Shown here: positions 18,666 through 24,321 of the stretch, piece by piece | Numbering within the stretch: the first letter of the stretch is position 1 | Layout of the letters: each line of letters opens with the position of its first letter | Assembly (NCBI GenBank): GCA_038251215.1 | Contig: JBBSBO010000001.1 | Coordinates: 1 to 24,715 of the forward strand | Reading direction: 5' to 3' | Length of the DNA: 24,715 bases | DNA from: Caldilineales bacterium | Lineage (GTDB): Bacteria; Chloroflexota; Anaerolineae; Caldilineales; Caldilineaceae | The notes under the pieces: model-generated | Told to the model about the DNA's origin: nothing | Databases searched by the model: none | The model's input: only the letters and a program-made list of their open reading frames with translations | Program-made: the position numbers and the translations under genes

Positions 18666-20330
18666 TCAAACTGAGAAGAGATTGCCCTCCGCCTCGCGCA
18701 CGTCCTGGTTCACGGGTAGCGTCACAAAGATAGTCGTCCCGCCGCCCACCTCGCTGCGCGCCCAGATCTGGCCGCCGTGCGCCTCGACAATGGCCTTCGT
18801 CAAGAACAGACCCAGCCCGCTGCCCTCGGTGCTGCGCCGCAAGGTGCTATCCACGCGATAGAAGCGGTCGAAAATGCGCGCCAGCTCATGCCGCGGGATG
18901 CCGATGCCCTGGTCCGCCACATATAGCACCACGCGCGCGCTGTCCCCCGTCTCCACCCAGCCGCCGATGCGGATCAAGCCGCCGTCGGGCGAGTATTTGA
19001 TGGCGTTGCCGACGAGGTTGGTCAATACCTGGCGCAGCCGCTCCTCGTCGCCCCAGATCAAAGGCAGGCGGTGCGGAAAGTCCACCTCAATGCGGTGACG
19101 TTCCGTCTGCGTGCGATAGATCTCCGCCACGCGCCGCGCCACATCCTCGATCTCGACGTCGGCGTAGTCCAGGCGCAGCCCGCTTGCCTGGATGCGACTG
19201 ACATCCAGCAAATTGTTGATCAGCGCCTCCAGCCGGTCGGCCTCCTCCTCGATCACCTGCAAGCTGCCGCGCGCCGTCTCGGCGTCCCAGTCGGCGTCGG
19301 GCCGGGCGAGCGTCTGCGCATAGCCCTTGATCAGCGCCACAGGCGTCTTCAGTTCATGGCTGATGATCGACGTGAAGGTCGACTTCATCTCCTCTTCTTC
19401 GCGAAAGCGCGTGATGTCATGCACGTTGGCGATGATGTTGACCAGTTCGCCGCCGGCGTCGTCAAACAGCGGCGTATACGTGATCGACACGGTGATGCGC
19501 CCGCCGCCGGGCCGCACCAGGTCGCCCTCGCAGCGCGCGCCGCTCTCGGGCAAATACGCGGGCGACGCCTCGCGCTGGCACAGATCCTCGCCTTGCACGT
19601 TTTCCAGCTGCAAGACCTCGTGGCAAGGCCGGCCCAGCGTCTCGTCCTCCGAAAGGCCGACCATAGCCGCCAGCGCCTGGTTGATCACGACCACGCGGCG
19701 GTCCATGTTGAGGATCAAGATGCCGTCGGCGCTGTTCTCGATGATCGTCGCCAGCCTGCTGCGCTCCGTCTCCAGTTGATTGACCAAACGCGCGTTGCGC
19801 ACGGCGATCGCGGCCTGATCCACAAAGCCTTGCAGCAACTGCCAATCCATGCGCGTGAAGGCATACTCGCTGCGAAAGAGGTAGATAATGCCCAACAGGT
19901 CCGTTTGGAAGAAGAGCGGCAGCCGCACTACCTGGCCTAGCGTAATGCCCAGCGTCTCTTCCACCTGATGGACGCGGGCTTGCAAGTCCGACGAATGGGG
20001 TTCAAACAGATCGGCTTCACCGCCCTCGGCGTCCCAGACAGGCGGCAGCGCCTCCAGCAGCGGCTCGAAGGCGGACACATATTTGGGCGGAATATTGTAG
20101 ACCGCGCGCACTTGCAGCCCGCTCAGCACCACCTGCGGGCGGTCCAGCTCGGCGTGTTCATTCTCCAGCGCGATCAGCCCCGTGCGACAGCCGACCATCT
20201 CGGCCGCGCTGCCCAGGATCAGCTTGAGCAGGCTAGGCAACTCCAGGTGAGAGGTCATGGCGCGCGTGATGCGCAGCAAATATTCGCGCTGGCGCAACTG
20301 ATACGTCGCCATCAATGCGGGTACGTTCAT
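18666..20330 (-). CDS. Soluble GAF-PAS-HisKA-HATPase histidine kinase with no adjacent response regulator
   Basis: GAF ending DQAAIAVRNARL, PAS IIENSADGILIL, H-box ISHELKTPVALIKGY, NLVGNAIKYS, DQGIGI, EGSGLGLFL. No TM segment seen. Confidence 0.9.
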   Translation of the reverse strand: MNVPALMATYQLRQREYLLRITRAMTSHLELPSLLKLILGSAAEMVGCRTGLIALENEHAELDRPQVVLSGLQVRAVYNIPPKYVSAFEPLLEALPPVWDAEGGEADLFEPHSSDLQARVHQVEETLGITLGQVVRLPLFFQTDLLGIIYLFRSEYAFTRMDWQLLQGFVDQAAIAVRNARLVNQLETERSRLATIIENSADGILILNMDRRVVVINQALAAMVGLSEDETLGRPCHEVLQLENVQGEDLCQREASPAYLPESGARCEGDLVRPGGGRITVSITYTPLFDDAGGELVNIIANVHDITRFREEEEMKSTFTSIISHELKTPVALIKGYAQTLARPDADWDAETARGSLQVIEEEADRLEALINNLLDVSRIQASGLRLDYADVEIEDVARRVAEIYRTQTERHRIEVDFPHRLPLIWGDEERLRQVLTNLVGNAIKYSPDGGLIRIGGWVETGDSARVVLYVADQGIGIPRHELARIFDRFYRVDSTLRRSTEGSGLGLFLTKAIVEAHGGQIWARSEVGGGTTIFVTLPVNQDVREAEGNLFSV

Positions 20331-20426: not shown

Positions 20427-20819
20427 CTAGGGCGTCAGGCTGGCGCCCGAAAACGAATCGGGCAGCAACTCCGCCACCGACGTGCGGCGAAACGCCCCGT
20501 GCTCGTCGGCGATGTACACCTGCATAGCCGGCCCCAGTTCCGCCATCACCTGGCGACAGATGCCGCAGGGCGATCCGCCGTCGCGCGTCGCCACGGCGAT
20601 CGCCACCGGCGCGCCCAGCCCCTGCGCCACCAGGCTGGTGAGCGCCACGCGCTCGGCGCAAATGGTCGCCGGGTAGGCCGCGTTTTCCACATTACAGCCC
20701 AGCGCCACTTGACCGTCCGCCGTCAGCGCCGCCGCGCCCACAGCATAGCCGCTGTAAGGCGCATAGGCGCGGCCGCGAGCTTGCAGCGCGTACTCCACCA
20801 ATTGTTCGGGCGTGATCAT
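20427..20819 (-). CDS. cdd: Cytidine deaminase (tetrameric, Cys-type)
   Basis: AYAPYSGYAVGAA, GCNVENAAY, ICAERVA, SPCGICRQ. Confidence 0.95.
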   Translation of the reverse strand: MITPEQLVEYALQARGRAYAPYSGYAVGAAALTADGQVALGCNVENAAYPATICAERVALTSLVAQGLGAPVAIAVATRDGGSPCGICRQVMAELGPAMQVYIADEHGAFRRTSVAELLPDSFSGASLTP

Positions 20820-20831
20820 GCTGGGTTATCC

Positions 20832-22205
20832 TCACTTAGACATTGAGTAATTGAAAGCCGACTGATCCTTGGCGGACAGACCGTCCCGCGCCGCATCGGT
20901 TGCGCCGCGCTTGGCAGGAGCAGGCTCCGCCTCGGTGCGCGCCGGCGTCTGTACCGGGGTCACAGGCTCGGCGCGCACCTCGTCGATGCGGCGGCCCTCC
21001 AGCGTGTGAACAATGAAGCGCCAGTCGGCTACCTCGACGGACTCGCCCGGCTCGGGCACATGGCCCAGTTCGCTGTAGATCAGCCCGCCAAGCGTGTCGG
21101 CGTCTTCATCCGGCACGTCCAGATTCAACAGCTTGGAAAGCGAGTAGAGGTCCAGGCGTGCGTTGAGCAGGTAAACATCCCCGCCCAATGCCTGCACAAA
21201 GATATCCTCTTCCTCGTCATATTCGTCCTGAATCTCGCCCACAATTTCTTCAATGATATCTTCGATCGTGACCAAGCCGGCGGTGCCGCCATACTCGTCC
21301 ACCACCATCGCCACATGCACGCGCCGCTTCTGCATCTCCTTGAGCAGCGCGTTGACCTTCTTGCTGGCAGGCACAAAGTAGGCGGGGCGCAGCAGCGTGC
21401 TGATGGGCATATCATCCCGGTTTTCGCGGAAGCAACTCAACAGGTCCTTGGCATACAAAAAGCCGACAATGTGGTCGATGTTGCCCTCGAACACGGGAAT
21501 ACGGCTGTGCCCGGCATCGATCGCCGTGTCCAGCGCCTGGCGCAAGCTGGTTTGAATGTCCATCGCCATGACGTCCATGCGGGGGACCATCACCTCGCGC
21601 GTCACCGTTTCGTCCATCTCCAAAATGCCGGCGATCATCTGCTTTTCGCTGTCGAGGATGGTCTCCTCTTCGTCGCCGACATTCATCAACAGGCGCAGCC
21701 CCTCTTCGGAGAGGAAGACGTTGTCGCCGTTCTCGACATCTTCTTCGTTCGCCGCAGACAGACCGATGCGGCGCAGCACTATGGAAAACGGCCACAGCAG
21801 GCGCGAGAACGTCTGCATCACCGGCGCGGCGTGCAGGGCAATTGGCAGCGGGCGACGCACGACCACGGCGCGCCCCAGCACCTGCACCACAGCAAAGCCG
21901 ATCCACGCTGCGGCTACAGCCCATGCCACCTGCGCCGTCGTCGCCGCGGCGGGCAACATGCGCACCAGCGCCGCCCCCGCGGCTACCAGCCCCGCCGTGG
22001 TCAGCAGCATCGAGGCCACAAACAACTGATCCGGCTCACGCAAAAGTCGCTCGGCGATGGCCGCGCGGCGATCTCCCTCTTCACTCCGCTTGCGAATCTC
22101 GCTGCGGCTCGCCATCGTCAAGGCCAGCTCCATCACTACCGCCAAGCCCACAGCCAGCAGCGCGAGCGCCAAGACGATCAAAGATAACGGGTCAGGTTCC
22201 ACCAT
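20832..22205 (-). CDS. CNNM/DUF21-CBS-CBS-CorC_HlyC protein (hemolysin/CorC-like Mg2+/Co2+ homeostasis family)
   Basis: N-terminal TM domain, VREVMVPRMDV, HSRIPVF, VVDEYGGTAGLVTIEDIIEEIVGEIQDEYD, C-terminal DTLGGLIYSELGHVP. Confidence 0.9.
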   Translation of the reverse strand: MVEPDPLSLIVLALALLAVGLAVVMELALTMASRSEIRKRSEEGDRRAAIAERLLREPDQLFVASMLLTTAGLVAAGAALVRMLPAAATTAQVAWAVAAAWIGFAVVQVLGRAVVVRRPLPIALHAAPVMQTFSRLLWPFSIVLRRIGLSAANEEDVENGDNVFLSEEGLRLLMNVGDEEETILDSEKQMIAGILEMDETVTREVMVPRMDVMAMDIQTSLRQALDTAIDAGHSRIPVFEGNIDHIVGFLYAKDLLSCFRENRDDMPISTLLRPAYFVPASKKVNALLKEMQKRRVHVAMVVDEYGGTAGLVTIEDIIEEIVGEIQDEYDEEEDIFVQALGGDVYLLNARLDLYSLSKLLNLDVPDEDADTLGGLIYSELGHVPEPGESVEVADWRFIVHTLEGRRIDEVRAEPVTPVQTPARTEAEPAPAKRGATDAARDGLSAKDQSAFNYSMSK

Positions 22206-22254: not shown

Positions 22255-23628
22255 TCAACTTTCCTGGGGCCGGCTGCCCGAAGCAGGGCGCAGCCGTGCA
22301 GGCACGCCCACCGCGACCGCGTGCGGCGGCACATCGTGGGTCACTACCGCGCCGGCGCCGGTCTTGGCGCCCTCGCCTATCTCCACCGGCGCCACCAGCA
22401 TCGTATCGCTGCCGATAAAGGCGCCGTCGCCGATCACCGTCCGGTGCTTGTGCGCCCTATCATAATTGCACGTAATCGTGCCCGCGCCGATATTCACGTC
22501 GGCGCCCACCTGCGCGTCGCCCATGTAGCTGAAATGGCCCATCTTGGCGCCCGGCCCCAGATAGCTGTTCTTCACCTCGCCAAAATTGCCCATGTGTACG
22601 CCCTGCGCCAGATGCGCGCCCTTGCGCAGATGACCGAACGGGCCGATTTGGCAGTCATCTTCCATCACGGCATCTTCCATCACCGAGTTTTGCACCTGGC
22701 AGCGGCTGCCAATGCGACTGTTTACCACGCGGCTGTAGGGGCCGATGGTCGCATGGCCGCCGATGATCGTGTTCCCCTCCAGCATCACGCCGGGCAACAG
22801 CACCGTGTCCTGCCCGATCTGCACAACGGCATCCACGTAAGTCGTCGCGGGGTCAACGACCGTCACGCCGTTGAGCATATGTCCCTCTAGGATACGGCTG
22901 CGCAATACCTGCGCCGCCGCGGCCAAATGCACGCGCGTGTTGATGCCGTTGACTTCGTCCAGGGGCGCTGCCATCGTCGCCACGCGGCATCCCTGCGCCG
23001 CGGCGAGGCCCGCCAAGTCGGTCAAGTAATACTCGCCCTTAGCGCTGAGCGGGATCTGCGGTAGGTTTTGCCACAGCCACGCGGCATCGAAACAGTAGAC
23101 GCCGGGGTTCAGTTCGCGCAGCGCCCGCTGCTCCGGCGTACAAGCGGCTTCCTCCACGATGCCCGTCACCTCGCCGCGGGCGTCGCGCACCACGCGGCCA
23201 AAGCCCTGCGGATCGTCGCGCGTGACCGTCAACATCGCCAGCGCCGTTTGGGCGTCGGCCTGCCGTGCGCGGGCGAACAACTCGACGAGCGCGCGCACCG
23301 TCTCGGCGCGCAAGAGGGGCATGTCGCCATACGTCACAACCACGGCCTCGGCCTGCCCCTCTAGCACGGGCTGCGCCTGGAGCACGGCGTGACCGGTGCC
23401 CAGCAGTTCCTTTTGCTCCACGAACTGCGCGCAGCCGTCGAGCAGCGCCTCCACTTGCTCGCGCCCATGCCCCACCACGACGACCGGCGCTCGCCCGCTG
23501 ACGGCTTGCGCCATGTCCACGGCCCACAGCGCCATGGGCTTGCCCAGCAGCGGATGCAGCACCTTGGGCAAGTCTGACTTCATACGCGTGCCGAAGCCCG
23601 CCGCCAATATCACATTTGCCGTACGCAC
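22255..23628 (-). CDS. glmU: Bifunctional UDP-GlcNAc pyrophosphorylase / GlcN-1-P acetyltransferase
   Basis: ILAAGFGTRMKSDLPKVLH, QKELLGTGHAV, KGEYYLTD, hexapeptide repeats, HFSYMGDA, IGAGTITCNYD. GTG start with RBS GGGAG. Confidence 0.96.
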   Translation of the reverse strand: MRTANVILAAGFGTRMKSDLPKVLHPLLGKPMALWAVDMAQAVSGRAPVVVVGHGREQVEALLDGCAQFVEQKELLGTGHAVLQAQPVLEGQAEAVVVTYGDMPLLRAETVRALVELFARARQADAQTALAMLTVTRDDPQGFGRVVRDARGEVTGIVEEAACTPEQRALRELNPGVYCFDAAWLWQNLPQIPLSAKGEYYLTDLAGLAAAQGCRVATMAAPLDEVNGINTRVHLAAAAQVLRSRILEGHMLNGVTVVDPATTYVDAVVQIGQDTVLLPGVMLEGNTIIGGHATIGPYSRVVNSRIGSRCQVQNSVMEDAVMEDDCQIGPFGHLRKGAHLAQGVHMGNFGEVKNSYLGPGAKMGHFSYMGDAQVGADVNIGAGTITCNYDRAHKHRTVIGDGAFIGSDTMLVAPVEIGEGAKTGAGAVVTHDVPPHAVAVGVPARLRPASGSRPQES

Positions 23629-23652
23629 AACGCTTCTCCCCGCCGACTATGA

Positions 23653-23701
23653 AAACAAATAAAAAACCAGACGCGCACGCTTGCCAGCATACGGTCTGGT
23701 T
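23653..23701 (-). terminator. Intrinsic terminator about 25-35 nt upstream of the glmU start
   Basis: Minus strand AACCAGAC-c-GTATGCT-ggca-AGCGTGC-gc-GTCTGGTT, followed by TTTTATTTGTTTT. Confidence 0.75.
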
Positions 23702-23825
23702 GATAATTCCATCTTATTATTCGGTTAACTGTCCGGTCTGATATCCGGCGCCCGCACGAACTGGGCGGTTTATCTTCGTCCATTCACCAACCGCGGAAAA
23801 GAGTTGTCCGTCGTTCCGTCGTTCG

Positions 23826-23854
23826 ATTCTAACACGCCGCCGAGGAGGGCGCAA
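23826..23854 (-). promoter_or_regulatory. Putative sigma70 promoter for the glmU leader
   Basis: Minus strand TTGCGC, 17 bp spacer, TAGAAT with extended -10 TG. Confidence 0.65.
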
Positions 23855-23937: not shown

Positions 23938-24055
23938 AGTTGGCGATGACCTACTCTCGCATGCAGTTGCCCGCATACTACCATCGGCGCTGGCGGGCTT
24001 AACTTCCGGGTTCGGGATGGAGCCGGGTGTACCCCCGCCGCTTCTATCACCAACA
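23938..24055 (-). rRNA. rrf: 5S rRNA
   Basis: Minus strand TGTTGGTGAT...GGTACACCCGGCTCCATCCCGAACCCGGAAGTTAAGC...CGCCGATGGTAGT...GAGAGTAGGTCATCGCCAAC; terminal helix pairs. Ends are approximate to a few nt. Confidence 0.97.
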
Positions 24056-24321
24056 CACCGCCTCGCCGTCTTTTTCAGGTTAGCTCGCCCGCACAGCGTA
24101 TCAGTCGGGCCGTTACAGCCTCGCCGATGCACCGGGGCGTCACCCTCGAGACGCTTGGGTGTGTCGCATTTATTGCTTTGTTAAGCAGCTCTGTTAATTC
24201 GAGCTGTTAAGCTGCGCGCCTGGCGTTGGCACGCCGGCGTTCGCACGCTAAAAACTGATTAGGATTAGGTTCTTCACAGTTGCTACAATCTGACTCGTTC
24301 CACTGATATAAGTCGTAGTGT

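Follow-up and report, generated by a model that had tools for sequence, protein, structure and literature searches.

A conserved leader open reading frame between the rRNA operon and the glmU-corC-cdd genes of Caldilineaceae: a candidate ribosome-mediated attenuator

Introduction

Intrinsic ribosome destabilization (IRD) sequences combine negative charge with intermittent prolines and abort translation, mostly right after the start codon and more strongly at low Mg2+; the leader peptide MgtL (MEPDPT) uses such a sequence to sense Mg2+ for mgtA, and Escherichia coli ybeX (corC) carries an IRD start of its own, for which induction at high Mg2+ has been proposed (bioRxiv 10.1101/2021.02.02.429294; PMC11282234; PMC12856214). 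Chadani et al. searched for IRD sequences with a window of six residues after the initiator methionine that is enriched in aspartate, glutamate and proline (D/E/P) (bioRxiv 10.1101/2021.02.02.429294). High Mg2+ induces both corC and mgpA in Salmonella, where a leader peptide, YoaL, overlaps mgpA (PMC12421838). A polyproline stall placed before the pyrL terminator within one open reading frame (ORF) leads to more termination when ribosomes stall (Elgamal, Artsimovitch, Ibba 2016; PMC5021804). Here we describe a leader upstream of glmU, a CNNM/CorC-type transporter gene and cdd on the minus strand of contig JBBSBO010000001.1 from assembly GCA_038251215.1 (Caldilineales bacterium). The stretch analyzed, hereafter the window, is the whole contig of 24,715 nt and belongs to a metagenome-assembled genome of the Caldilineaceae (Chloroflexota, Anaerolineae) that comprises 899 contigs and is 85% complete.

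We report the anatomy of this leader, the conservation at the amino acid level of the start of an upstream ORF (uORF), the upkeep of the uORF frame through an intrinsic terminator, the overlap of its stop codon with the glmU start, and its link to the corC-type gene. From these comparisons we consider it highly probable that the uORF is translated and has a regulatory role, exerted via the terminator or via coupling to glmU. As the best explanation, which we rate at somewhat better than even, we put forward ribosome-mediated attenuation by a leader peptide together with translational coupling, the most likely signal being Mg2+ or ribosome stability.

The locus resembles MgtL in having a very short leader ORF that is D/E/P-rich right after the methionine, where early elongation failure would set transcription of the operon downstream, in the case of MgtL one for Mg2+ transport; the family variants MEPDNPPS and MDDPDPD, and the transporter start MVEPDP, look alike in this respect. 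The likeness extends over seven residues, too short a stretch to test homology. The differences are considerable: MgtL has 17 codons, works with a Rho-dependent terminator and alternative stem-loops, does not run through its terminator and switches on an importer when Mg2+ is low, whereas here an intrinsic terminator lies inside an ORF of 30-70 codons whose stop overlaps the start of the next gene, and an exporter-type gene would be expected to be ON at high Mg2+. Like pyrL of the E. coli pyrBI operon and the PPPPPP-pyrL reporter, in which a close ribosome suppresses termination, the uORF runs through an intrinsic terminator, here as a natural layout; unlike pyrL, for which the signal is UTP-dependent pausing of RNA polymerase and the peptide sequence is irrelevant, the uORF has a conserved N-terminus and no conserved U-rich tract. 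E. coli ybeX and Salmonella YoaL-mgpA are similar in that CorC-domain cation-efflux genes are proposed to be raised at high Mg2+ through a fragile N-terminus or an overlapping leader peptide. They differ in that ybeX carries the motif within its own coding sequence and the mechanism of YoaL is uncharacterized, that glmU is not involved, and that no terminator-spanning uORF has been described for either.

Results

The start of the leader ORF is conserved at the amino acid level

The uORF and its conserved motif lie between the 5S rRNA gene and glmU:

23610-23783, minus strand: leader ORF (uORF), 57 codons, MDEDKPPS..., stop TGA at 23612-23610; from the ORF list and family-wide comparison
23760-23780, minus strand: uORF codons 2-8 (D-E-D-K-P-P-S), conserved D/E/P-rich motif and proposed sensor; from codon entropy and comparison

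We located glmU in 136 of 151 genomes of the family and took the upstream regions of about 60 of them for comparison; genus labels (g1, g4, g13 and so on) and locus labels (L170 and so on) are codes internal to this analysis. All six other genomes of the genus carry the leader DNA, in each case flanked by 5S and glmU, and conservation is highest in a block where the ORF begins, ATGGACGAAGAYAAACCGCC. By pattern search we recovered this block in a second genus with the amino acids kept (MDEDNPPN/S). Across the family, 58 of 69 loci, from 18 of 22 genera, have a uORF that starts M-D-D/E-(D/E)-x-P-P or with a close variant (MADEPP, MEDNPP, MEPDNPPS, M(D/E)ADSPPD, MDDPDPD). These uORFs lie 90-380 nt upstream of glmU and always downstream of 5S.

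In two alignments, with 21 and 26 distinct leaders, variation within the conserved codons is almost confined to third positions, which carry 1.1-2.0 bits of entropy. First and second positions of the class aligned over seven codons (codons 2-4 and 6-7) have 0 bits, except for 0.45 bits at position 2 of codon 3; in the six-codon class, codon 2 carries 0.24 bits at position 1 and 0.62 bits at position 2. The 15 nt upstream of the uORF ATG are unconserved in these alignments. Periodicity of this kind marks selection acting on a translated product rather than on RNA structure, and this evolutionary evidence leads us to infer that the uORF is translated.

The six-residue window of Chadani et al. 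is D/E/P-enriched in the uORF (MDEDKPP, five of the six residues after the methionine being D, E or P) and likewise in the leaders of the family. At least four of residues 2-7 are D, E or P in 52 of 53 unique uORFs, as compared with 0.7% of 3656 long ORFs of the genome, the enrichment being in part circular, as the uORF search pattern itself called for acidic residues and proline. The window's own genome has no other leader bearing the motif, and three further motif matches lie inside longer ORFs; pattern matches at loci L026-L028 are inside other genes and are due to chance. Searches by regular-expression and composition criteria, which other types of leader could escape, did not find the uORF before glmU in some 65 loci of other Anaerolineae, Thermoflexales, Ktedonobacterales and Dehalococcoidia, or in the roughly 450 nt upstream of corC orthologs in 40 genomes from other families of the class.

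The frame stays open through the terminator and ends at glmU

The distal part of the uORF contains two elements relevant to expression of glmU:

23652-23701, minus strand: predicted intrinsic terminator inside the uORF, an interrupted 16-bp stem (23701-23665) followed by a T-tract (23664-23652); from folding and comparison
23626-23641, minus strand: glmU ribosome-binding site (GGGGAG, 23641-23636) and GTG start (23628), inside the last uORF codons; from the sequence

The terminator hairpin folds with about -24 to -25 kcal/mol and has homologues across the family, the pattern ACCAG(A/G)C ... GCG(T/C)CTGGT with a following T-run being detected in 35 loci of 14 genera. Its outer stem shows compensatory changes (for example CCAGAC/GTCTGG versus CCAGGC/GCCTGG), and its inner stem covaries freely. 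Since the sequence leaves no room for a further promoter between the terminator and glmU, read-through would be needed for glmU expression, as a preliminary description of this DNA had argued; the promoter, hairpin, T-tract, glmU ribosome-binding site and 57-codon ORF all lie at the coordinates that it gave.

Beyond codon 8, different genera have unrelated peptides, and the frame in which the hairpin is crossed varies even inside the genus of the window. The uORF frame is open up to the hairpin start in all 35 terminator-bearing loci (14 genera), as against 11 and 5 of the 35 in the two control frames. Similarly, the uORF stop lies at most 25 nt from the glmU start in 41 of 58 loci (4 and 5 in control frames), and an exact 4-nt stop/start overlap with glmU (ATGA, GTGA or TTGA) occurs in 20 of the 58, from 10 genera (0 and 1 in control frames). 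These statistics are unbiased because neither ORF length nor stop position was used to pick the ORFs. They argue from sequence comparison that ribosomes are meant to cross the terminator and finish on the glmU start, and they support the suggestion made earlier of a pyrBI-like attenuator with an ORF through its terminator.

The likeness to pyrBI raises the possibility of UTP-sensitive attenuation, in which pausing of RNA polymerase at low UTP would let the ribosome catch up and mask the terminator. The ORF does span the terminator as in pyrL, and the genes downstream use or make pyrimidine nucleotides, GlmU as a UTP-using enzyme and Cdd in pyrimidine salvage. However, we found no conserved U-rich pause tract before the terminator, where the linker is A-rich and variable among relatives, and a UTP signal would leave the conserved MDDxPP peptide unexplained. 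We regard this mechanism as very improbable; among the signals listed in the preliminary description UTP is disfavored for want of a conserved U-rich pause region, and Mg2+ is the leading candidate.

Promoter and RNA structure of the leader

Upstream of and within the first part of the uORF, we identified a predicted promoter and two small hairpins:

23826-23854, minus strand: leader promoter, -35 TTGCGC (23854-23849), 17-nt spacer, extended -10 TG-T-TAGAAT (23834-23826); from the sequence and relatives, with a transcription start site (TSS) predicted near 23819
23733-23767, minus strand: two small hairpins after the Pro codons, CGCCC/GGGCG (23767-23749) and CCGG/CCGG (23748-23733); from folding

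A -35 TTGC and a -10 TGnTA(G/C)AAT recur at the same place in relatives from g1 and g4; a simple consensus scan missed the promoter, whose -35 matches at only three of six positions. The predicted leader is about 165 nt long, with the uORF starting 36 nt after the predicted TSS and ending 19 nt past the first base of the glmU GTG.

Folding of the whole leader is of unexceptional stability (z = -1.6), and the helices that had been singled out as mutually overlapping are poorly kept. The competing helix GCGGTT/AACCGC and a second copy of CAGACCG, which had been thought able to pair with the terminator 3' arm, are both real in the window and are otherwise present only in the closest relatives; the CGCCC/GGGCG helix is likewise real, and other hairpins take its position in relatives. 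A hairpin with the Pro codons in its 5' arm recurs in g1, g4 and g18 and is not universal (mean z = -1.1). The two small hairpins downstream of the Pro codons may serve in pausing or in ribosome entry.

The recurring hairpin could also suit a switch of the opposite logic, in the direction of trp and MgtL, with a ribosome that stalls or aborts at the D/E/P residues remodeling the leader into an antiterminator so that poor translation would be the ON state; a stalled ribosome would melt this hairpin. A search for a trp-type alternative antiterminator gave no conserved complement to the terminator 5' arm, and the second CAGACCG copy is unconserved and runs in the same sense as that arm. Moreover, an open frame through the terminator and an overlap with glmU make sense only if completed translation is the productive state, and genera without terminators keep the overlap. 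An antiterminator of this kind is improbable.

We also considered that the hairpin could be a plain terminator of the rRNA operon, or the leader a standalone small RNA or riboswitch, with the ORF incidental. Indeed, in g13, g21 and g5, which have no leader ORF, a homologous hairpin lies directly after 5S, suggesting that the terminator probably also stops read-through from the rRNA operon; and a terminated product of about 165 nt is predicted. To this extent the earlier idea of a back-up rRNA terminator stands, although it does not account for the conserved ORF: variation limited to third positions and upkeep of the frame would be impossible for an incidental ORF. A conserved promoter separates 5S from the leader, and RNA structure outside the terminator is not conserved. 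Rfam 15 gave only 5S and 23S at gathering score in the window; between 23500 and 24000, at E <= 10, only rRNAs and a chance bZIP match inside glmU were found, and the leaders of 20 relatives had no Rfam match besides rRNAs. These covariance scans agree with the earlier view that the leader is not a glmS ribozyme, M-box, T-box or PyrR element. They also make the riboswitch and small RNA proposed there unlikely, since what is conserved is the amino acids of the first seven codons and not RNA structure, and the unremarkable fold led us to reject such a reading. An incidental ORF is the least probable of the explanations that we weighed.

RNA contigs in public data cover 5S and part of glmU, and such contigs cannot show transcript ends. 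One contig of 152 nt (metatranscriptome run X15, 2 mismatches), for which DNA carry-over is possible, covers 23694-23845; it begins 26 nt before the predicted TSS and reaches the terminator 5' arm. If this contig is RNA, some transcripts enter the leader from upstream by rRNA read-through.

The uORF accompanies a corC-type transporter gene

From the sequence and from Rfam and Pfam matches, the order on the minus strand is the 23S end, 5S, promoter, leader, hairpin, glmU, the CNNM/CorC-type transporter gene and cdd. Downstream of the leader, the genes of the apparent operon are:

22255-23628, minus strand: glmU, bifunctional UDP-GlcNAc diphosphorylase / GlcN-1-P acetyltransferase; NCBIfam TIGR01173, 511 bits, above cutoff, and Pfam
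20832-22205, minus strand: CNNM/CorB-type cation exporter, DUF21 transmembrane region, CBS pair and CorC_HlyC, starting MVEPDP; Pfam
20427-20819, minus strand: cdd, cytidine deaminase, last gene of the apparent operon; Pfam

In almost every genus of the family, the best corC ortholog lies immediately downstream of glmU. Genera g13 (locus L170, genome G115) and g5 (locus L171, genome G010) have glmU-cdd-GAF/PAS histidine kinase and neither corC nor uORF; their leader regions contain only 5S, the hairpin and glmU. A single deletion cannot explain both losses, because the uORF and corC flank glmU on opposite sides. We found no genus with the uORF and without corC (genus-level Fisher p ~0.01-0.03, for genera that are not independent of one another). 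The wider synteny, glmU-[corC]-cdd-kinase, is kept in distant genera, even where corC is lacking (L170, L171). In the window, a sensor kinase gene (GAF-PAS-HisKA-HATPase, 18666-20330, minus strand) lies downstream of cdd.

The N-terminus of the window's transporter (22188-22205, minus strand) reads MVEPDP and thus contains the MgtL motif EPDP. Orthologs in the family start VEPEP, VDVDP, VDVEP or VEPDS, just before the first membrane helix. By analogy with the proposal for E. coli ybeX, this D/E/P-rich start may be a second translational checkpoint.

The leader follows an rRNA operon

The rRNA genes upstream of the leader are:

to 24321, minus strand: end of 23S rRNA; Rfam
23938-24054, minus strand: 5S rRNA gene, end of the rRNA operon; Rfam RF00001, 93 bits

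In each of the 20 family loci scanned with Rfam, glmU is preceded by a 5S gene, and the adjacency of the rRNA operon and glmU is family-wide. In many draft genomes of the family, glmU lies 200-800 nt from a contig end, because the rRNA operon immediately upstream breaks assemblies. The flanks of 5S (about 24085-24055 and 23937-23905), an A-run before the gene and a T-run after it, pair with each other in a duplex of -27 kcal/mol. This duplex is the pre-5S processing stem; given this pairing, the T-run directly after 5S is not the tail of a free-standing terminator. The spacer between 23S and 5S (24055-24320, minus strand) is unusually long, at about 266 nt, and contains GC-rich palindromes and an A-rich stretch. 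ARAGORN found no tRNA or tmRNA genes.

Discussion

We propose that transcription of the leader begins at the conserved promoter and that some transcripts may also come from read-through of the rRNA operon. The early D/E/P cluster and the Pro-Pro pair of the uORF would be intrinsically hard to translate, such that ribosomes pause or fall off. Ribosomes that get past the motif would trail RNA polymerase, cover the terminator 5' arm about 80 nt further on and so block the hairpin; they would then stop on the glmU start, delivering ribosomes to glmU or opening its start. Completed translation of the leader would thus turn glmU-corC-cdd ON, and failed early elongation would leave naked RNA that folds the terminator, turning the operon OFF. 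With Mg2+ as the signal, high free Mg2+ would allow the leader to be completed and the CNNM/CorC-type exporter to be made, an inversion of the MgtL logic. An exporter made only when ribosomes are stable, at high Mg2+, would make physiological sense. Both the direction of the switch and Mg2+ as its signal are what we infer from the layout of the locus and the likeness to known systems; we hold the assignment of Mg2+ or ribosome stability as the signal tentatively, at a little short of even.

Several observations weigh against attenuation by an Mg2+-responsive leader peptide. The uORF and its overlap with glmU persist in g22, g17 and most of g9, where terminators are weak or absent; for this reason the terminator is not essential to the conserved core. 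That core is the uORF and its coupling, the strong terminator of the window's genus being an added transcriptional layer. We found no recognizable Shine-Dalgarno sequence in the 15 nt before the uORF ATG, and glmU has a good one of its own (GGGGAG), so that coupling to the uORF may not be obligatory. As noted above, part of the D/E/P enrichment was built into the search. Regarding the link to Mg2+ transport, g21 has corC and no uORF, the first gene after the leader is glmU with the transporter second, and the matches of the transporter to the NCBIfam models for GldE, CorC and PaeA are all below cutoff and do not assign its substrate.

Lastly, the invariant Pro-Pro fits dependence on EF-P as well as it fits ribosome destabilization, making EF-P activity or proline supply the main rival to Mg2+ as the signal. 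The architecture would be the same, with Pro-Pro as the sensor and read-through set by EF-P or by the supply of Pro-tRNA (compare mgtP/mgtCBR, or coupling maintained by EF-P), tying glmU-corC to translation capacity or growth rate. The prolines are indeed the most conserved residues, positions 1 and 2 of both codons being invariant in both alignment classes; most leaders have PP, with N, D, E, P, G, S or R as the next residue; loss of EF-P raises termination at an intrinsic terminator after a polyproline stall (PMC5021804); and a site right after an rRNA operon suits coupling to growth rate. Nonetheless, the equally conserved acidic residues before the prolines would be left unexplained, as would the co-occurrence with corC, and variants without PP exist (MEPDNPA, MEPDNLP, MDDPDPD, MEDIPLD). 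We consider a Pro-Pro sensor unlikely overall.

Whatever the signal, a vague "structured leader" in the poorly studied Chloroflexota and Caldilineaceae becomes a concrete and testable regulatory device. The uORF is a conserved small ORF of a kind that gene callers miss, and it serves as a warning against calling such leaders riboswitches. The locus also provides a natural operon with a proposed stall site before a terminator in one ORF, a design until now demonstrated with a synthetic reporter. For the family as a whole, we suggest as a possibility, one that we rate below even and below the Mg2+ assignment itself, an "inverse MgtL": a ribosome on the D/E/P leader would gauge cytoplasmic Mg2+ or general ribosome stability, and only robust translation would mask the terminator, pass ribosomes on to glmU and turn ON an exporter together with a cell-wall precursor enzyme, in the path of rRNA read-through. 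If Mg2+ is indeed the signal, the leader would be a natural case of ribosome destabilization by a nascent peptide with polarity opposite to that of MgtL and an intrinsic terminator in place of Rho, and would support the idea, based until now on E. coli ybeX, of efflux genes that high Mg2+ induces by such a mechanism.

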